Shown: positions 6,029 through 64,000 of the stretch, piece by piece
Position numbering within the stretch: position 1 is the stretch's first letter
How the letters are laid out: each line of letters begins with the position of its first letter
Assembly: GCA_963849405.1 (NCBI GenBank)
Contig: CAWKHG010000001.1
Coordinates: forward strand, 215,513 to 279,512
Source: an uncultured Chloroflexia bacterium
GTDB taxonomy: Bacteria > Chloroflexota > Limnocylindria > Limnocylindrales > CSP1-4
Reading direction: 5' to 3'
DNA: 64,000 bases
Program-made: the position numbers and the translations under genes
Notes under the pieces: generated by a model
Database searches by the model: none
Told to the model about the DNA's origin: nothing
The model's input: only the letters and a program-made list of their open reading frames with translations

Positions 6029-7147
6029 ATGAGCACACCCGACGCCCTCGCGGCCGGGGCGACCTCGGCTCCACGACCCGGGGTCCTGGTTCGTCTCCGA
6101 CGGCGGCTGCGGCCTCGCGCGGCCAAGTCGGCCGGCCGCTCGTTCATCGTCACGTTCGTGGCCGTCGTGCTGGTGGCGGCCTTCCTTTCGCCGCTCATCC
6201 GCTCGGTGAGCCTGTCGATCAAGAACCCGACGCAGATCGCCGCCGTCGAGTCGCCGATCTGGCCGGCCAGTCCCGGGCTCTTCACGTACAAGGATCGCGA
6301 CTACCCGCTGTACCAGGTGCCGATCGACGGCACGATCAAGAACCTGGCCCTGGTCCGGAAGGGCCTCCAGTCGAGCCAGTTCGCCGACCCGGCCGCCGGG
6401 CCGACAGGACCGCTCATCACCTGGCAGGGCGCCTGGCGGACGCTCCAGCCGGCCTACGTCCTGGATCCCCACTTCGAGAACTTCACGAACGTGTGGGACC
6501 AGATCCACTACCCGCGCCTGCTGTTCAACACGATCGTGATCGCCCTGCTCGGGATGATCGGCACGGTCGTGTCGTGCACGCTCGTCGCGTACGGCTTCGC
6601 CCGTTTCCGGTTCCCCGGCCGGAACACGCTCTTCCTGCTCGTCATCGCGACGATCTTCCTGCCCGGCGCGGTCACGATCATCCCCACGTACACGCTCTTC
6701 TCGGAGATCGGCTGGACCGGCACCTGGCTCCCGCTCATCGTCCCGGCGTTCTTCGCCAACGCCTATGACGTGTTCCTGCTGCGCCAGTACCTGCTCACGA
6801 TCCCGCGCGAGATGGACGAGGCGGCGGCGATCGACGGGGCCGGCCCCTTCAAGACCCTGACCGCGGTGATCATCCCGCAGGCCTGGCCGGTGATCACGGC
6901 CGTGGCGATCTTCCACCTCGTCTACTCGTGGAATGACTTCTTCGGGCCGCTCATCTACCTGTCCGGGCACGAGGACCTCCAGACCGTGGCCGTCGGCCTG
7001 GCCAACTTCAGCGGCGCGCGCATCGCCCAGGACCCGGGCCTCATCATGGCGGGCACGCTCATGACGCTCATCGTTCCGGTCATCCTGTTCATCGTGTTCC
7101 AGCGCGTCTTCGTCCGCGGCATCGTCATCACGGGGGTGGAGAAGTAG
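6029..7147 (+). CDS. ABC sugar transporter permease (MalG/UgpE-like) with a long first periplasmic loop
   Basis: Contains EAAAIDGAGPFKTLTAVIIPQAWPVITAVAIFHLVYSWNDFFGPLIYL. Starts 8 nt after the preceding permease. Confidence 0.9.
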   Translation: MSTPDALAAGATSAPRPGVLVRLRRRLRPRAAKSAGRSFIVTFVAVVLVAAFLSPLIRSVSLSIKNPTQIAAVESPIWPASPGLFTYKDRDYPLYQVPIDGTIKNLALVRKGLQSSQFADPAAGPTGPLITWQGAWRTLQPAYVLDPHFENFTNVWDQIHYPRLLFNTIVIALLGMIGTVVSCTLVAYGFARFRFPGRNTLFLLVIATIFLPGAVTIIPTYTLFSEIGWTGTWLPLIVPAFFANAYDVFLLRQYLLTIPREMDEAAAIDGAGPFKTLTAVIIPQAWPVITAVAIFHLVYSWNDFFGPLIYLSGHEDLQTVAVGLANFSGARIAQDPGLIMAGTLMTLIVPVILFIVFQRVFVRGIVITGVEK

Positions 7148-7185
7148 CCAGCCCAGGCGGGGGTGCGTCCGCGCGACCCACGCGG

Positions 7186-8224
7186 ATGGCCGCAGAGATC
7201 GCCGAGAGCCCGGACGTGGTCGCCCGCGTCCTCTCCGAGGGTGCGCCGGCCATCGCCGCCGCGGCCGCCGCGGTCCGGGCCGCCCGGCCGCGCTGGGCGA
7301 GCGTCGTCGCCCGGGGCACCTCGGACCACGCCGGGATCTACGGCCGGTTCCTCATCGAGACCCAGCTCGGGATCCCGGTCGGGCTCGCGTCGCCGTCGGT
7401 CACGACGATCTACGAGGCCCGGATCCGCTGGCGCGGCGGCCTGCTCCTGGCCATCTCGCAGTCCGGCCAGAGCCCGGACATCGTCGGGGTCACGACGGCC
7501 GCGCGGGCCGACGGTGCGCTGACGATCGCGGTCACCAACGAGCCCGAGTCGCCGTTCGCAGCCGCGGCCGACCACGTCATCCCCTGTCTGGCCGGCGAGG
7601 AGCGAGCGGTGGCCGCCACGAAGACCTACTCCGCCGAGCTGGCCGGCCTGGCCGGGCTCGTCGGCGCGCTCGCCCCGCGATCGCCGCTGGAGCGGGCGCT
7701 GGCCCGGCTCCCCGATGAGCTGCGGCGGGTCCTGGCGACCTCCGCGGCCTGGGTCACGGGCGACGGGGACGAGCTCGTCGGCCAGGTCGCCGCATCGGGG
7801 CGGGCGCTCGTCGCGTCACGCGGGTTCGACCTCGCGACCGCACTCGAGATCGCCCTCAAGCTCAAGGAGACGAGCCGCATCTTCGCCGAGGGCTACTCCA
7901 CCGCGGACCTCGAGCACGGCCCGGTCGCCCTCGCGGGGCCAAGCATCCCGACGCTGATCCTGCGTCCGGACGGCCGGATGGGCGCGGCCATCGATCCGGC
8001 GATCCGGCGGGTGGAGGCATCGCGCTCACGGCCGTGGCTGATCGGCGGCCGGGAGCTGACGACGGCCGGCCGCACGCTGGGCCTCGCGTTCGACCTGCCC
8101 GAGGCGCTCAGCCCGCTGGCGTTCATCCTGCCCGGCCAGCTGCTCGCCGAGGCAGTCGCCCGGAGTGCGGGCTTCGATCCCCGATTCGCCCGCCGGCCTC
8201 ACGAAGGTGACCCGGACGAACTGA
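7186..8224 (+). CDS. SIS-domain sugar-phosphate isomerase/aminotransferase-like protein (GlmS C-terminal-like, no glutaminase domain); 3' frameshift
   Basis: Contains ARGTSDHAGIYGRFLIETQLGIPV...LLLAISQSGQSPDIV...AVTNEPESPFAAAADHVIP...ERAVAATKTYSAEL. As read, the ORF runs to 8292. Dropping one C of the CCCC run at 8179-8182 gives the canonical end GFDPDSPAGLTKVTRTN-stop at 8224. Confidence 0.8.
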
Positions 8225-58517: not shown

Positions 58518-59342
58518 CTAGGCGACCGCCCGGCGGCGCCGGTCGGTGTAGACGAGCATCCCGAGCAGGGTTCCCACGAACACGATGGCGATCGGCAGGA
58601 GCGCGCCACCGAGCGTCCCCGTGGCGACCGGCTCATCCGACAGCGTCGGCGGCGGGGTGACCGAGCCGCCACCGGAGGCCGCGGAAACGGTCCGGTTCAC
58701 GATGCTCGCGGAGCAGTTCACGAGCGAACCGCCACCGTTGGCCGAGTTGTTGCACTGGTAGACGGTCACGCCGAAGGCCGAGGATCGCGTGCCGGTCGCG
58801 CTGCAGTTCAGCCCGACGAGCGTCCCGCCGTTGGCCGTGCCGTTGCACTGGGTGATCGTCGCGTTCGTCGTCGTCGCGGGGAAGGGGTGGCAGTGGTTGG
58901 TGATGCCGCCGCCCGAGCCGACGCACTGATTCACGGTCGCCTTGCTGGCGCCCGGGCTCAAGAGGACGAAGTTGTTCGTCACGTGGACGCTGCAGCGGAG
59001 CGTGCCGCCGCCGCCATTGATGGCGTAGTTGCACTGGCGGACCCGCGACACGGGCTGGCTGAGGAACGTGGTCCTGGTCGAACACGCCGCCGTGGGGGCG
59101 CCGGCCGAGCCGTGACATTCGCGGATCGTGACCTTGGCGGACCCGCCATTGGCGGTGATCGTGTTGACGATCGTGACCTGGCAGATCAGGCCGAGCCCGC
59201 CCGTGTTGTCGACGCTGTTGCTGCAGGTCGTGGTCGGCGCGACCGTGGCCGCGGCGACAGGGGAGGCGGTCGAGAAGGCGGTCGCGGCCAGGAGGCCGAA
59301 CGCGAACACACCTGCGAACAGGATGCTGAGGGGACGACGCAT
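58518..59342 (-). CDS. secreted Cys-rich repeat protein with C-terminal membrane anchor
   Basis: Signal peptide MRRPLSILFAGVFAFGLLAATAFSTASPVAA. Six repeats, each with a Cys pair around a Gly-rich loop (e.g. QCNYAINGGGGTLRCSVHVTN, QCNGTANGGTLVGLNCSATG, QCNNSANGGGSLVNCSASIVN). Pro-rich linker, TM helix and RRRR tail. Confidence 0.75.
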   Translation of the reverse strand: MRRPLSILFAGVFAFGLLAATAFSTASPVAAATVAPTTTCSNSVDNTGGLGLICQVTIVNTITANGGSAKVTIRECHGSAGAPTAACSTRTTFLSQPVSRVRQCNYAINGGGGTLRCSVHVTNNFVLLSPGASKATVNQCVGSGGGITNHCHPFPATTTNATITQCNGTANGGTLVGLNCSATGTRSSAFGVTVYQCNNSANGGGSLVNCSASIVNRTVSAASGGGSVTPPPTLSDEPVATGTLGGALLPIAIVFVGTLLGMLVYTDRRRRAVA

Positions 59343-59541: not shown

Positions 59542-60597
59542 CTAGCGCGAGTGGTGCTCGGCCTTGACGGCAAGCATCGCGGCGTCGGCGCGCTCGGTCA
59601 GCTGGTCGGCCGTCTCATCGGGCGCGAGCTCCGCGAGGCCGACGCTGATCCCGACATGGGCCTGCTGCTCGATGGCCGCCCCGATCACCTCGAAGCGACG
59701 GCCGGCCTCCTGGATGTCGGTCCCGATCAGCCCGCACACGAACTCGTCGCCCCCGTAGCGGATGATCGGATCGAAGGAGCGCAGGCGCATCCGGATCGCG
59801 TCGACCACCGTTTCCAGCACGTGGTCGCCGGCGGCATGGCCCTCGCGGTCGTTGACGTCCTTGAGCCCGTCCACGTCGACGAACGCCACGACGAACCGGC
59901 CGTCCGAGCGGCGCGCCCGGTCGATCTCGTGGGACAGGGCGAGCCGGCCCATGTCCCGGCGGTAGGCGCCCGTGAGATCGTCGAGATGGGCCGATCGGAG
60001 CTCGGCCTCGAGCCTGGCTCGTTCGCGGGCGGCATTCGCCCGGTCGATCGCCGCCCGGGCTCGATCGGCCGCCGCTCGTGCCCGGTCGGCCGCCGCCCGC
60101 GCGGCGAGCTCCTCGAGCTGCTGGAGGAGCGACGCGTCGGAGGTGTCCCGGGTCTGGGCCTCCACGGCGGCCCGCGCGTCACGGGTGCGACCGGCATCGT
60201 CCCGGGCCTCGGCGATCCTGTCGCGCTGGCGGGCCGTGGCGTCGCGATCCCGCGCCGTCGCGGCACGGGCCTGGCGGTGCAGCTCGCGCTGGAGGGCCAC
60301 GGTCTCGCGAAGCTCGCGCGAGGCGACATACGCGGACTCGTCGGCCGCGCTCACGCTGGACCGGGCGTCATGCTCGCGGTCGGCGGCGGCCTGGTCGTTC
60401 TCCGAGGCCCGCATGTCGCGCTCGGCGTCGCTCTGGTCGACCGCGGAGGCCGTCTGGTCGGCGTCGGAGGCCGTCTGGTCGGCGTCGGAGGCGGTCTGAT
60501 CGGCGTCGGCCGCCACCTGGTCTGCATCGATCGCCGCGCGAGCGTCGCCGATCGCCTTCCGGACATCGAACCGGGTCGGTCTAGCGCCGTTCTTCAT
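59542..60597 (-). CDS. diguanylate cyclase (GGDEF) with long N-terminal coiled-coil/repeat region
   Basis: C-terminal LTGAYRRDMG...FVVAFVDVDGLKDVNDREGHAAGDHVL...RYGGDEFVCGL. The N-terminal ~200 aa are Asp/Ala/Arg-rich heptad-like repeats. Start taken at MKNGARP. Confidence 0.85.
   Translation of the reverse strand: MKNGARPTRFDVRKAIGDARAAIDADQVAADADQTASDADQTASDADQTASAVDQSDAERDMRASENDQAAADREHDARSSVSAADESAYVASRELRETVALQRELHRQARAATARDRDATARQRDRIAEARDDAGRTRDARAAVEAQTRDTSDASLLQQLEELAARAAADRARAAADRARAAIDRANAARERARLEAELRSAHLDDLTGAYRRDMGRLALSHEIDRARRSDGRFVVAFVDVDGLKDVNDREGHAAGDHVLETVVDAIRMRLRSFDPIIRYGGDEFVCGLIGTDIQEAGRRFEVIGAAIEQQAHVGISVGLAELAPDETADQLTERADAAMLAVKAEHHSR
60445..60507. repeat. 21-bp tandem repeat (3 units, 2 identical) inside the GGDEF gene
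   Basis: GGAGGCCGTCTGGTCGGCGTC x2, then GGAGGCGGTCTGATCGGCGTC. Encodes (DADQTAS)x3 on the minus strand. A degenerate fourth unit follows. Confidence 0.85.
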
Positions 60598-60748
60598 CCA
60601 CCCCTCATGCGAACCATCGCGCGCGTCAGCCGTGCACGAGACACGTGCACCGTTGCAACGGTACGCCCGGGTCGGCGACGGCCGCATCGATGAAAACCCG
60701 GTATCGATAACGAGCCCGTATCGGGAAGGGCCTGAGAGATCCGCCGGG

Positions 60749-63085
60749 TCAGGGGATCGGCACGACCATCACGTACAGGCCGTCCTTGTCCGGGTACGTG
60801 CCCCTGGGACGCTTCCAGGGCAGGAAGTCGATCGACAGGTCGGCGACCTCCTTGAGCGTGTCCGGCTGGTCGGACGGGCCCCAGATCGAGGAGATCCGCG
60901 GCCACCAGACATCCTCGATGTAGATCCCCTCGACCTTGAACTTGTCGCTTACGGCCGGGTCGGCCGTGGACGTGAACCCGGACATGACCCAGGAGTGCGC
61001 GCCGCGCCAGGTCATCATCCCGACAGGGCGGTTGGTGAGGCGCATCTGGACCGCGGCCATCTGGACGGCGGCGCGGATCGTCGGCGAGGTCCGGACCTCG
61101 TAGTTGCCGTAACCGAGCTCGGCCAGGCCCATCGCCCAGCCCTCGGGCTCGACGGCGCCGTCCGGTGCGGGGGCGAGCGATCGGGCGAGGTTGAACACGC
61201 TGCGCTGGGTCTCCTTCGTCCGGTCGTTACCGGCGTCCATGATGTTCATCATGGTCTGCATGGCCGCCGGCACGCACCAGATGTCGGTGAACTCGCCGGC
61301 ATAGTCGCCACTCTCGTAGAGGTCCATCTCGAACGGACCCGGCGTGGGGGTCGGACCGAGGGACGCGGAGGGCGAGGGTCCGCCCGAGCCGCCGGGGCCT
61401 CCGCTCGGGCTCGGCTCGGACGTGGCCACGGCGCTCGGCGGCGGGCCGACCGATGGGGGTGGCGCCGACGGCCTCACCCGGGCAAATGGCGTGATGACCG
61501 GGGCGTACTGGAGGGTCGCCCCCGCGAGCGCGGCGTTCGTGGCATGGATGACGCCGATCGCCAGGCCGACCAGGGCGATGGACAGGACGACCGCGGCGAG
61601 CCGGCGGCCGAACGGTGTCCGGGGCCGCCATGGCGCGCCAGGCCCGGCCATGTCACGCGCCTGGGTCGCCTCCGCCGCCCGGCCGATGCGGGCCATCCGG
61701 GGCACGAGCGCGAAGGCCAGGATCGTCACCTTGAGGGCCATCCCGGCCGCGAAGCCAAGGGGCACGGCGGACAGCCCCGCCGTGGGTGCGAGGGACTCGG
61801 CCGCCAGCACGGTGGCCACGAACCCGGCGACGGATGCGATCGTCGGCAGGATCGTGTTGCGGGTGGCGTACAGCGCCCGGGCCAGGAGATGGGTCAGGCT
61901 CTCGAACGGGATGGCGAGGGCGAAGACACCGAGGATCGTCGCGGTCCGCGCCGTCGCCGGGTCGCTCAGGTCGCCGCCCAGGAAGATCGAGATGACCAGG
62001 CCGCCCGTGAAGAAGAGGACCACGGCTCCGGCGATCGTGAGCGCCGAGATCGTCAGCAAGTTGGTCGTGAACACCCGCCGGAACGTCGCCCGGTCGCCGG
62101 TCGCGAACGCCGACGAGAGGAGCGGGAACGCGGCGATCGCGAAGGACGCGCCGATGAGGCTGACGGGCACGCTCTCGAAGTTCCGGGCGACGCTGACGGA
62201 GCTGATGCTGCCGTCGTCGAACCGCGATGCCAGGGACGTGAAGTACAGGAACGTCAGCGGCTCGATCGGATGGCTGAGCATCTTGGGGGCCATCAGGACG
62301 AGGAAATCGCGCACCCCGCGGACCCGCAGGTGGAGCGTGGGGACCGGCCGGAACGGCGTTCGCCAGATGCCGATGAGCCGGATCGCCAGGTGCAGCAGAG
62401 CGCCCAGGATGGCCCCCACCGCCGCGCCGAAGATGCCGATCCGCTCGCCGAGCAGGAGCGTGCCGGCGACGATCCCGCCGTTGTAGAAGAGCGGCGCGAG
62501 CCCGTAGAACAGGAAGCGCCGTTCCGCCACGAGGATCTCGCCGAGCACGATCGAGGTCGCGAAGATGACCGGCGTGACGCACATGAGCCGGAACAGGTCG
62601 ACGTACAGGTCGCGCTCGGCGGCATCGAAGCCCGGGGCGATCAGGCTCACGGTCTGCGGCGCGAAGACGATGAGCACGAGCGACGTGAGGCCCATCACGC
62701 TCACCGCCAGCGTCAGGATCGAGCGACCGAACGCCCGGGCGGTCTCGGCCGCCTCCGCTCGCAGGCCCGTGAACAGCGGCACGAACGGCGCGACGAGGCC
62801 GCTGGCGACGAGCACGTCGAGGGCGAGCTCGGGCAGGATGAACGCCGCGTTGTAGGCGTCGAGCTCCTGGCCGAAGCCGAACGTCCGGACGAAGATCCGG
62901 TCGCGGACCAGGCCCATCGCGTAGCCCGCGAACGTGAGGATCGACAGGACGACCGCACCGGTCGGCAGGAATCGCACGGCGAACGCGAACACGCGCCGGG
63001 CGAGCGAGCTCGGGGGCGACGCGGGCGGCGGCGGGGCGGCGGGGGCCGGGGCCGTCGGGTTCAAGCTCTCCTCAGCGTGCGCCAC
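60749..63085 (-). CDS. murJ: lipid II flippase MurJ (MviN) fused to an extra TM, a Pro/Ser/Gly linker and a C-terminal papain-fold (C39-like) Cys/His domain
   Basis: MurJ core: AMGLVRDRIFVRTFGFGQELDAYNAAFILPELALDVLVASGLVAPFVPLF... and about 14 TMs. Then LAAVVLSIALVGLAIGVIHA, a PSAPPPSVGPPPS...GPTPTPGP linker, then FTDIWCVPAAMQTMMNIM...TWRGAHSWVMSGFTSTADPAV...IYIEDVWWP. Confidence 0.85.
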   Translation of the reverse strand: MAHAEESLNPTAPAPAAPPPPASPPSSLARRVFAFAVRFLPTGAVVLSILTFAGYAMGLVRDRIFVRTFGFGQELDAYNAAFILPELALDVLVASGLVAPFVPLFTGLRAEAAETARAFGRSILTLAVSVMGLTSLVLIVFAPQTVSLIAPGFDAAERDLYVDLFRLMCVTPVIFATSIVLGEILVAERRFLFYGLAPLFYNGGIVAGTLLLGERIGIFGAAVGAILGALLHLAIRLIGIWRTPFRPVPTLHLRVRGVRDFLVLMAPKMLSHPIEPLTFLYFTSLASRFDDGSISSVSVARNFESVPVSLIGASFAIAAFPLLSSAFATGDRATFRRVFTTNLLTISALTIAGAVVLFFTGGLVISIFLGGDLSDPATARTATILGVFALAIPFESLTHLLARALYATRNTILPTIASVAGFVATVLAAESLAPTAGLSAVPLGFAAGMALKVTILAFALVPRMARIGRAAEATQARDMAGPGAPWRPRTPFGRRLAAVVLSIALVGLAIGVIHATNAALAGATLQYAPVITPFARVRPSAPPPSVGPPPSAVATSEPSPSGGPGGSGGPSPSASLGPTPTPGPFEMDLYESGDYAGEFTDIWCVPAAMQTMMNIMDAGNDRTKETQRSVFNLARSLAPAPDGAVEPEGWAMGLAELGYGNYEVRTSPTIRAAVQMAAVQMRLTNRPVGMMTWRGAHSWVMSGFTSTADPAVSDKFKVEGIYIEDVWWPRISSIWGPSDQPDTLKEVADLSIDFLPWKRPRGTYPDKDGLYVMVVPIP

Positions 63086-63201
63086 CGGATCGTCGCTGTC
63101 ATGGGGCAGGGCGGCGGTCCGGGTCGACCACCAGACGCTCGGGCGGGTCCGCGCGCTGCGCCCGGCCGGCGCCGTTCACCGGTCCTGCGGATGGACGACC
63201 C

Positions 63202-64000
63202 TTACGGGATCACCACCACGTAGCGGTTCCGCCAGCCCTTCGGGATGTACGGGTCGCGGAACGGGGTGAGGTAGCGGGCGAAGCGGGAGACCGTCATCGT
63301 CACGTTCGGGGCGGGATCGTAGCCGTTGATCGCCGGCCGGACGCCGAACAGAGGGCCCTCGACGCTCACGCTCGTGACGACGTACTCGGACGTGACGGCA
63401 GGATCGGCCGTGGCCGTGAAGCCCGAGATCACCCAGACATGGACGCCGTGCATGACGAAGACGCTGGCCGGCCGGCCGGTCAGGCGGATCGCCCTGGCGG
63501 CCGCCCTGACGGCGTTCGTGTAGCCGGCCGCTGCAGCGATCCGGTAGTTCGGATGGACGTACTTCCGGAGCAGCGCCTGCATGCCGGCGGGATCGACTCC
63601 GGCGGCCCGTGGCGTGACGTACTGGTTGTGCGCCCGTCCATAGGCGTTGTACGCGCTCTGGTAGCGGAGCGAGTGGTCCTGCTGGTTGTAGACCATGTTG
63701 CGCATCATCTGGACCGATGCCGCGACGCACAGGCGCATCGTCGCCTGCTTGGAGTACGAGCCCGCCCGGTACACCGAAACGCCGCCCGTCCACTCGCCGA
63801 GGATCGTGACCGTGATCGTCGCCACGTCGGAGCCGGCCTCGTTCTCGACGGTCAGCGTGACCGTGTAGATCCCGGGTCGTCGTAGGTGTGCGTCGGATGC
63901 CGGCGGGTCGAGGTCGTGTCGCCGTCGCCGAAGGTCCATTTCCGGCTGTCGGGCTCGCCGGTCGATTCGTCGGCGAACGCCACTTCCTGGTCCTCGAAGT
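63202..64000 (-). CDS. PKD-domain protein with C-terminal papain-fold Cys/His domain (paralog of the MurJ C-terminus); 5' end beyond the window, frameshift near 63874
   Basis: PKD motif FADESTGEPDSRKWTFGDGDTTSTRRHPTHTYDDPG (one frame), then IYTVTLTVENEAGSDVATITVTI (frame of ORF 63202..63939). Then RLCVAASVQMMRNMV...VMHGVHVWVISGFTATADPAV... Confidence 0.8.
   Translation of the reverse strand, partial: LRGPGSGVRRRIDRRARQPEMDLRRRRHDLDPPASDAHLRRPGIYTVTLTVENEAGSDVATITVTILGEWTGGVSVYRAGSYSKQATMRLCVAASVQMMRNMVYNQQDHSLRYQSAYNAYGRAHNQYVTPRAAGVDPAGMQALLRKYVHPNYRIAAAAGYTNAVRAAARAIRLTGRPASVFVMHGVHVWVISGFTATADPAVTSEYVVTSVSVEGPLFGVRPAINGYDPAPNVTMTVSRFARYLTPFRDPYIPKGWRNRYVVVIP

Follow-up and report, generated by a model that had tools for sequence, protein, structure and literature searches.

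MurJ proteins with added modules, transporters fused to papain folds and wall hydrolases of the papain superfamily are each already known, and these are the systems with which the gene considered here can best be compared. The gene lies in a stretch of 64,000 nucleotides (hereafter the window) from an uncultured Chloroflexia soil bacterium of the class Limnocylindria (GenBank assembly GCA_963849405.1, contig CAWKHG010000001.1), where a minus-strand open reading frame (ORF), 60749..63085, codes for a protein of 778 amino acids (aa) that joins a MurJ-family flippase core to a predicted papain-fold Cys/His domain. The combination of these parts in a single protein, as well as the unnamed family to which the domain belongs, appear to be new.

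In MurJ homologs, the transmembrane (TM) helices TM13-14, which are unique to these proteins, form a polyprenyl groove and are conserved in the MurJ of both diderm and monoderm bacteria (bioRxiv 10.64898/2026.06.21.733627). MviN of Mycobacterium tuberculosis, with which an earlier reading of this DNA from its sequence (hereafter the original prediction) had contrasted the fused protein, indeed carries a pseudokinase, but it also possesses a carbohydrate-binding domain which that contrast had left aside (PMC12599244). Within the papain superfamily, Ozhelvaci and Steczkiewicz assigned papain, staphopain, C39, C39_2, C70 and phytochelatin synthase to cluster I, C39 and C39_2 being grouped together, and NlpC/P60 and CHAP to cluster II (PMC10318531). 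Among phage enzymes, the N5 module of mycobacteriophage Lysin A was matched by HHpred with a C39-like peptidase and with staphopains (Payne and Hatfull, PMC3314691), and the catalytic domains known from the lysins of phages that infect Gram-positive bacteria include Peptidase_C39_2 (PMC8223927). No MurJ-peptidase fusion, no account of the present domain family and no work on the cell wall of Limnocylindria were found in the literature; neither a family annotation nor a paper dealing with this architecture came to light. The Limnocylindria are a widespread uncultured class of soil and freshwater bacteria, whose envelope is, to our knowledge, uncharacterised.

The fused gene and its flippase half

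Along the polypeptide chain, the MurJ-family core is followed by an Arg-rich loop, one further TM helix, a disordered Pro/Ser/Gly linker and a domain of ~195 aa, which occupy the following positions in the window:

61675..63085, minus strand: MurJ-family (MOP superfamily) flippase core, residues 1-470, made of an N-terminal Pro/Ala-rich tail and 12 TM helices.
61600..61699, minus strand: Arg-rich cytoplasmic loop, residues ~462-495, with 8 Arg/Lys and a short helix, 469-479.
61519..61614, minus strand: TM13, residues ~491-522, with a hydrophobic core at 496-515 (hydropathy peak 2.52; helix in the AlphaFold2 (AF2) model).
61333..61518, minus strand: juxtamembrane motif VITPFARVRP and Pro/Ser/Gly-rich linker, residues 523-584, with a predicted local distance difference test score (pLDDT) <50 over 522-579.
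60749..61332, minus strand: predicted Cys/His domain with a papain fold, residues 585-778 and the stop codon, supported by AF2, Foldseek, conservation and the ratio of non-synonymous to synonymous substitution rates (dN/dS).

The full-length AF2 model (mean pLDDT 84.6) comprises helices over residues 42-466, arranged into two six-helix lobes, the short helix 469-479 and a single helix 491-522 (pLDDT about 58-69), after which a disordered stretch (522-579) leads to the folded domain. All of the motifs quoted by the original prediction were recovered, LAAVVLSIALVGLAIGVIHA at residue 496, WCVPAAMQTMMN at 603, RGAHSWVMSGFTSTADPAV at 694 and IYIEDVWWP at 721, and the linker it had described as rich in Pro, Ser and Gly contains 18 Pro, 10 Ser and 9 Gly among the 62 residues from 523 to 584. 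The juxtamembrane motif is kept among the fused proteins, the relatives reading TPWAR, and the loop preceding TM13 is basic in all of the aligned fused proteins. A scan of positions 60400-64000 for promoters and terminators gave nothing above chance.

The flippase half is readily recognized as a member of the MurJ family. The Pfam MurJ profile (PF03023) matches residues 66-464 with an E-value of 5.8e-56 and a score of 190.4 bits, above the gathering threshold of 27.4, leaving the C-terminal 48 positions of the profile unmatched; similarly, the NCBIfam profile TIGR01695 (murJ_mviN) is aligned with residues 45-465 over its positions 7-431 of 506, the C-terminal 75 being unmatched. Among the PDB sequences, solved MurJ chains are the best matches (phmmer, E 7.5e-24), with alignments running collinearly from residue ~34-46 to ~437-448, the latter corresponding to ~residue 418 of E. 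coli MurJ, which we take to lie inside TM12. Foldseek searches with the flippase half place MurJ structures first (E 8e-16 to 4e-11, TMt up to 0.79), those in outward-facing states being the nearest, and the best MATE or WzxE matches (3e-10 or weaker) rank behind them. Two of the cavity arginines of the E. coli protein, R24 and R270, have kept equivalents in R61 and R301, according to an alignment read by eye. The core is not, however, the normal one of ~14 TM helices that had been assumed: it consists of 12 TM helices, its alignment to E. coli MurJ ends at ~447, and the canonical TM13-14 pair is absent, the 12-TM core plus the one additional helix giving 13 TM helices in all. Unfused close relatives of 433-470 aa stop right after TM12, e.g., the 467-aa protein P0183 (59% identical; contig L015, 1041-2444), which is encoded by a complete unfused gene with a convergent neighbour. 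Because these complete unfused relatives also end after TM12, the short 12-TM form is a lineage trait; no description of a MurJ clade devoid of TM13-14 was found in the literature.

With respect to membrane topology, TM13 is flanked by 8 Arg/Lys residues on its N-terminal side and 2 on its C-terminal side, in agreement with the positive-inside rule. The number of TM helices is still odd (13) and the loop before TM13 is strongly basic, from which it is predicted that the domain is exposed on the outer side. The paralogs of the domain, which possess either signal anchors or a signal-peptide-like N-terminus and a PKD domain, favour the same extracytoplasmic placement. A single extra TM helix with an outward-facing tail, as originally proposed, is thus also what the prediction methods return.

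The fused architecture recurs across the lineage. In a scan of one genome per GTDB species, close relatives of the domain came up at 11 loci, seven of which (L003, L004, L006, L010, L011, L012 and L013) align with residues ~15-777 in a single tblastn frame at 45-63% identity; the seven aligned proteins share the complete layout of core, basic loop, one TM helix, TPWAR-type motif, Pro/Ser/Thr linker and domain. Taken together, the one-frame fusion is found in nine other Limnocylindria contigs, namely those of the seven species representatives, a near-relative metagenome contig and a protein-cluster representative. The near-relative contig (L014), with 87% DNA identity over 3.3 kb, encodes a fused ortholog of 774 aa. 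When 1.84 billion cluster representatives were searched exhaustively with HMMER, three full-length fused clusters at 50% identity (P0180, 774 aa; P0181, 800 aa; P0182, 783 aa) were obtained, together with about eight fragments spanning the junction between MurJ and the domain. Compared with the ortholog of L014, dN/dS amounts to 0.16 in the core and 0.20 in the linker, and to 0.10 both in the loop with TM13 and in the domain, values which indicate that the fused gene is under purifying selection. The fused architecture is conserved but restricted to a small clade. All named relatives are assigned to Candidatus Limnocylindrales/Limnocylindria or to "Chloroflexota/Chloroflexia"; an actinobacterial frame for the protein does not hold, every one of them belonging to the phylum Chloroflexota and the class Limnocylindria.

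Two top matches, P0008 and P0009, were considered as stand-alone proteins that would speak against the fusion, and were rejected: they begin inside TM12 and TM13 and their source assemblies are frameshifted, so they are regarded as C-terminal pieces of fused genes. In a 779-kb contig from the European Nucleotide Archive (L001, 4586-5921), the murJ part is distributed over three frames, and the gene caller returns fragments and a spurious antisense ORF. At another locus (L011, 5595-5747), the fused ORF does not stop at the usual C-terminus but continues into a poly-G-like tail rich in Gly, which is probably an assembly artefact or the result of a lost stop codon.

The predicted papain-fold domain

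The AF2 model of the domain, built on a 64-sequence alignment, reaches a pLDDT of 96.2 and a predicted template modelling score of 0.93. In domain numbering, a helix (22-34) begins at the Cys and a strand (115-124) begins at the His. As modelled, the fold is papain-like (clan CA): the leading Foldseek matches in the PDB (probability >=0.9, ranks 1-19) are all clan-CA enzymes. The PDB matches comprise UfSP2 (3oqc, E 2e-4), staphopain (1y4h), the UfSP of C. elegans (5xda and 5ejj), the phytochelatin-synthase-like protein Alr0975 (2bu3, and also 6tho), CdiA-CT (8ssk) and the C39 domain of PCAT1 (7n87), with TM-scores of about 0.5. In a library of predicted viral structures, the top matches are a Synechococcus phage peptidoglycan-binding protein (6e-5), the Lysin A of Mycobacterium phage Indlulamithi (1e-4) and the endolysin of Gordonia phage OneUp (3e-4; TM-scores 0.60/0.59, root-mean-square deviation 4.4 Å), accompanied by cyanophage "lysozymes". 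Structure prediction and fold search thus agree with the papain fold that had been suspected from local motifs.

At the sequence level, the domain stands apart from the annotated families. Searched alone against Pfam, NCBIfam and the PDB sequences, it has no match; its profile retrieves nothing but noise from the PDB chains, e.g., TFIIB at E 0.8, and the two copies of the window retrieve nothing from Pfam even at E = 10. Sub-threshold matches to Peptidase_C39_2 (PF13529) occur in three of the 64 family members, among which P0129 and P0161 score 19.7 and 19.2 bits (cut-off 24) over positions 5-134 and 6-143 of the 143 of the profile. The resemblance to C39 peptidases put forward by the original prediction is thus weakly backed by these three members, and by no profile match of the window copies themselves.

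The family is nevertheless a large one. Searches started from the fused copy and from the paralog retrieved 705 and 59 proteins, respectively, and the family profile at least 2,396 clusters at 90% identity; the named homologs are all called "hypothetical", apart from one labelled as a Spy/CpxP chaperone, and no Pfam domain covers this region in the homologs, two weak PF13529 flags excepted. Within the 64-kb window, the family profile detects exactly two copies. A signal anchor followed by a low-complexity linker and the domain, in proteins of ~280-300 aa, represents the commonest architecture; other members consist of a signal peptide and the domain, or of a PKD domain and the domain. Two stand-alone domain genes are arranged in tandem in a Chloroflexota metagenome-assembled genome (L005, 5001-5594 and 5847-6476), and this tandem, together with the at least 2,396 clusters, points to a strong expansion of the family by paralogs. 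On the basis of sequence comparison and modelling, the domain is best read as belonging to a large unannotated family of the papain superfamily, which is specific to Limnocylindria and distantly related to Peptidase_C39_2 and to the cysteine-peptidase modules in lysins of actinophages and cyanophages.

The putative catalytic residues are strictly conserved, as had been expected of the Cys and the His. Cys604, which opens the first long helix, is present in 61/61 aligned sequences, and His697, which opens the central strand, in 64/64; both are also invariant in a trimmed set of 20 sequences. Since the equivalent of Cys604 is the sole Cys in 61 of the 64 domains, it most readily qualifies as a nucleophile rather than as a disulfide partner. 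Arg682, Pro687, Gly695, Trp699, Gly703, Phe704, Asp709 and Pro710 are the other invariant positions, and the family can be recognized by the motifs GxHxW, GF-ATADP and RLT-RP. Asp725, in the IYIED motif, is located at the end of the strand that follows the His strand, i.e., at the usual site of the third residue of the triad. The Asp proposed for this role is not, however, a family-wide feature, the column containing Asp in 40 and Gly in 24 of the 64 homologs, with Gly in the neighbouring paralog. In papain, a Gln at about position -6 from the Cys contributes the oxyanion hole. This position is held by Gln in 33 and by Glu in 28 of the aligned sequences, and by Glu in all fused copies, including that of the window (Glu598). 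The Glu(-6)/Asp combination distinguishes a clade made of the fused copies and their nearest stand-alone relatives, and the Gln(-6)/Gly combination a PKD-type clade to which the neighbouring paralog belongs.

Proposed function and competing readings

The interpretation to which most credence is given, though tentatively, is that of a flippase to which a cysteine peptidase or amidase is tethered on the outer side; this enzyme would act on the peptide moiety of peptidoglycan and be localised to the export of the precursor. The short 12-TM MurJ-family flippase would export a polyprenyl-linked wall precursor, most likely lipid II, and TM13, together with a Pro/Ser/Gly tether of ~60 residues, would keep a Cys/His enzyme, predicted to be catalytically competent, at the outer surface of the membrane. 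This enzyme would probably cut a peptide or amide bond of the stem peptide of peptidoglycan or of a cross-link, as an endopeptidase, an amidase or a carboxypeptidase. Held by its tether to the flippase, the enzyme would cut only where the precursor emerges, and the opening or trimming of the wall would in this way be coupled to the supply of precursor. The domain may be linked to the wall mainly through the similarity of its modelled fold to phage lysins; the substrates of the two halves and the coupling between them are what we infer from such comparisons. As to its origin, the fused protein would be explained most economically if a 12-TM MurJ that once stood alone had been joined to a family member with a signal anchor, the helix of this anchor having become TM13.

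A number of points weigh against this proposal. On the flippase side, the TIGR01695 score of 203.1 bits is below the equivalog cut-off of 235.55, the protein falls outside the structural definition of MurJ by 14 TM helices, and two further cavity arginines of E. coli MurJ, R18 and R52, are replaced by Tyr and Leu in the alignment read by eye; because of this score, of the absence of TM13-14 and of the loss of R18 and R52, the core may flip something other than lipid II. On the side of the domain, neither the window copies nor any other family member reaches the Pfam gathering threshold for a peptidase family, the fold matches are remote (TM-scores of about 0.5-0.6, 10-14% identity), and the Glu found at position -6 in the fused clade, instead of the Gln of the oxyanion hole, could reflect an altered chemistry. 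A protein substrate would fit equally well, since the fold matches include the protein-directed staphopain and UfSP. On long contigs, the neighbourhoods of the stand-alone paralogs differ from one another and offer no cell-wall gene context. Finally, the functional claims are wholly computational, and the lineage is uncultured.

That the domain is rather a protein-directed extracytoplasmic cysteine protease, which would mature or shed surface or secreted proteins and use MurJ as a mere anchor with no mechanistic link to the precursor, is somewhat unlikely, although the best PDB fold matches, i.e., UfSP2, staphopain and the C39 domain of PCAT1, do act on proteins or peptides, and most of the family consists of simple proteins, signal-anchored or secreted, the neighbourhoods of which vary. 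The fusion partner, however, is the same in all orthologs down to 45% identity and is kept under purifying selection; a constant MurJ partner is not expected of an arbitrary anchor, since a single TM anchor already suffices for the paralogs. The matches in the viral library, moreover, are wall lysins.

A second alternative, which overlaps with the other readings and appears unlikely, views the flippase half as a 12-TM MurJ-like exporter of another lipid-linked polymer, the domain then processing this polymer or its peptide. Such an exporter would accommodate the TIGR01695 score, which at 203 bits stays below the cut-off of 235.55, the missing TM13-14 and the existence of stand-alone relatives of 433-470 aa, but Pfam and the solved structures rank MurJ ahead of MATE and WzxE, the equivalents of R24 and R270 are kept, as far as the eye-read alignment can tell, and the gene is located outside any polysaccharide cluster.

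It is less probable still that the enzyme is a transferase instead of a hydrolase, as the original prediction had suggested among other kinds of precursor processing. In this scheme, which follows the logic of sortases or L,D-transpeptidases, or that of the transpeptidation by phytochelatin synthase, Cys604 would carry an acyl-enzyme intermediate, from which a peptide or protein would be handed over to the stem peptide of lipid II just after flipping; the precursor would be edited or decorated at export. The acyl-enzyme structures of Alr0975 (2bu3, 6tho) are found among the fold matches, the fusion places the enzyme beside the emerging precursor, and the Glu in place of the oxyanion-hole Gln hints at a modified chemistry. 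No result separates transfer from hydrolysis, however, a disordered tether of ~60 residues would allow the domain to move far from the exit of the flippase, and acceptor- or donor-related genes are not conserved nearby.

An artefact of assembly or sequencing, e.g., the loss of a stop codon or a frameshift by which two genes were joined, would agree with the state of the neighbouring gene of the window, where at least one indel of 1 nt occurs, and with the noise of some related assemblies, such as that of L001 with its murJ split over three frames. It is nevertheless improbable in the extreme: the same continuous frame and conserved junction recur in nine contigs or clusters that are independent and come from different studies, and dN/dS across the junction is 0.10-0.20. 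One-frame orthologs across genomes and purifying selection exclude, as far as can be judged from the nucleotide data, the artificial joining against which the original prediction had warned.

Compared to the flippase-tethered peptidase or amidase preferred here, a closer cooperation of the two halves can also be envisaged, though only as a rather doubtful extension: the flippase and the Cys/His domain would work as one unit on the same molecule, the groove-less MurJ handing the flipped lipid II, or a related precursor, to its own thiol enzyme for trimming or transfer before polymerisation. If this were true, the fused protein would combine flippase and enzyme into one machine for precursor editing, of which no counterpart has been described, and the many paralogs of the enzyme would point to an unusual, thiol-enzyme-based wall chemistry in the lineage.

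It is an open question how bacteria adjust the cleavage and editing of their wall to the new precursor that is supplied; the known solutions are based on non-covalent complexes and regulators. A conserved covalent fusion between a flippase and a predicted thiol enzyme represents a "Rosetta stone" link in this regard, and offers a direct experimental handle on the coupling of export and remodelling. A MurJ-family flippase without the TM13-14 groove, furthermore, challenges the assumed universality of the MurJ lipid groove, and its absence bears on the transport model as well as on groove-directed inhibitors. The large unannotated papain-fold family, with its at least 2,396 clusters at 90% identity and its abundance in Limnocylindria, merits a family entry.

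Gene neighbourhood and comparison with known systems

The second copy of the domain detected in the window belongs to the gene located immediately upstream of the fused gene, which runs off the end of the window:

63202..63801, minus strand: paralogous, predicted papain-fold domain at the C-terminus of a PKD protein (BLASTP E 2e-21; family-profile hmmsearch E 2.7e-81; dN/dS 0.135).
63802..64000, minus strand: PKD domain of the upstream gene, distributed over two frames (frame translations, PKD matches, alignment to L014/P0121); the gene extends beyond the window.

The C-terminus of the upstream ORF (63202..63939, minus strand) shares 30% identity with the MurJ tail over 195 aa, and is preceded in the same ORF by the C-terminal third of the PKD domain. 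The paralog possesses the Cys, the His and the Asp of the TADP motif, with Gln at -6 and Gly in place of Asp725. The N-terminal half of the PKD domain (FEDQEVAFADESTGEPDSRKWTFGDGD...THTYDDPG) occurs in another frame than the remainder (GIYTVTLTVENEAG...), because one nucleotide of the stretch CCCGGG-ATC, at ~63871, is missing from the window when it is compared with the near-relative contig L014. In L014, the corresponding gene is intact and encodes P0121, a protein of 304 aa made of a hydrophobic signal-peptide-like N-terminus, a PKD domain and the papain-fold domain, and the 774-aa MurJ fusion is found 140 nt downstream. As dN/dS downstream of the frameshift of the window is 0.135, the frameshift should be either a sequencing error or a very recent event; the possibility of a long-dead pseudogene was considered and rejected on the same value. 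The neighbour announced as a paralog behind a PKD domain is thus a true paralog, encoded by a gene which is broken in the window by a 1-nt deletion, and its adjacency to the fused gene is observed in the window and in one near relative but is absent at seven other fused loci.

At these seven loci, none of the window genes that accompany the fused gene recurs, except for the domain itself. The neighbours of the fused gene in other genomes, identified by eye from the N-termini of the ORFs, are of the housekeeping type, e.g., a dnaG-like primase, a saccharopine-dehydrogenase-like and a glutamate-decarboxylase-like protein, and the fused gene is not located within a polysaccharide cluster in these genomes.

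Other genes were observed in the vicinity of members of the family. Directly downstream of the fused gene (59542-60687, minus strand), the window codes for a GGDEF protein (RYGGDEF, read by eye), the N-terminal part of which contains an Asp/Ala/Gln-rich tandem repeat (DADQTAS x3) and a coiled-coil-like Ala/Arg-rich segment; further on (58518-59342, minus strand), it codes for a predicted secreted protein of 274 aa, with a signal peptide, a C-terminal TM anchor and ~four Cys-containing repeats of the type C..N..GG...C.V.V.N. A small gene of the Glyoxalase_6 family (PF18029) is found near a domain gene at three unrelated loci (L016, 5626-5997; L002, 3141-3494; L001, 737-1087), directly upstream of a stand-alone paralog in L016, near one in L002 and ~3.5 kb from the frameshifted fused gene in L001, a co-occurrence which may be due to chance. 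In L002, a convergent gene (6889-7668) for a protein with an SH3_3 domain, a type of domain that often binds the cell wall, comes right after a stand-alone paralog.

Compared with the known systems, the fused protein resembles MurJ and MviN (Rv3910) in its 12-TM MOP core, for which the solved MurJ proteins are the best matches by sequence as well as by fold, and it resembles MviN in having added C-terminal modules. The carbohydrate-binding domain of MviN was reportedly placed by Gee et al. in 2012 outside the membrane, behind an extra TM helix; if so, an outward-facing appendage on MurJ has a precedent. The fused protein differs from both MurJ and MviN in the replacement of the TM13-14 groove by a single extra TM helix, and from MviN in the absence of a pseudokinase and in that its outside module is a predicted enzyme, with a papain fold and an invariant Cys and His, instead of a binding domain, and that it occurs in Chloroflexota rather than in Actinobacteria.

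With the NlpC/P60 (C40) and CHAP (C51) enzymes, the domain has in common the type of a Cys/His enzyme of the papain superfamily predicted to work outside the cytoplasm. These enzymes cut the stem peptides of peptidoglycan and provide the functional model for the peptidase or amidase activity proposed above. They differ from the domain in that they belong to cluster II, another structural cluster than that of the neighbours of the domain (PMC10318531), and none of their structures appears among the top 50 PDB matches listed.

The exporters of the PCAT1 type, in which a C39 domain (PF03412) is fused to an ABC transporter, provide the other example of a papain-fold Cys/His domain covalently joined to a membrane transporter. 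In these exporters, however, the C39 domain is cytoplasmic and cuts the leader peptide of the cargo before export, whereas the fused protein combines a MOP flippase with a domain which, according to the predictions, is held by a long flexible linker on the outer side of the membrane.

Peptidase_C39_2 and the N5 module of phage lysins, finally, resemble the domain in the papain cluster-I topology, with the Cys at the N-terminus of a helix, the His on a β-strand and, in the 40 of 64 homologs that have Asp at the position of Asp725, an acidic residue on the next strand. The family of the fused domain differs from them in being cellular and membrane-tethered, in its many paralogs and in its own invariant motifs, and it shares 10-14% identity with its fold matches.

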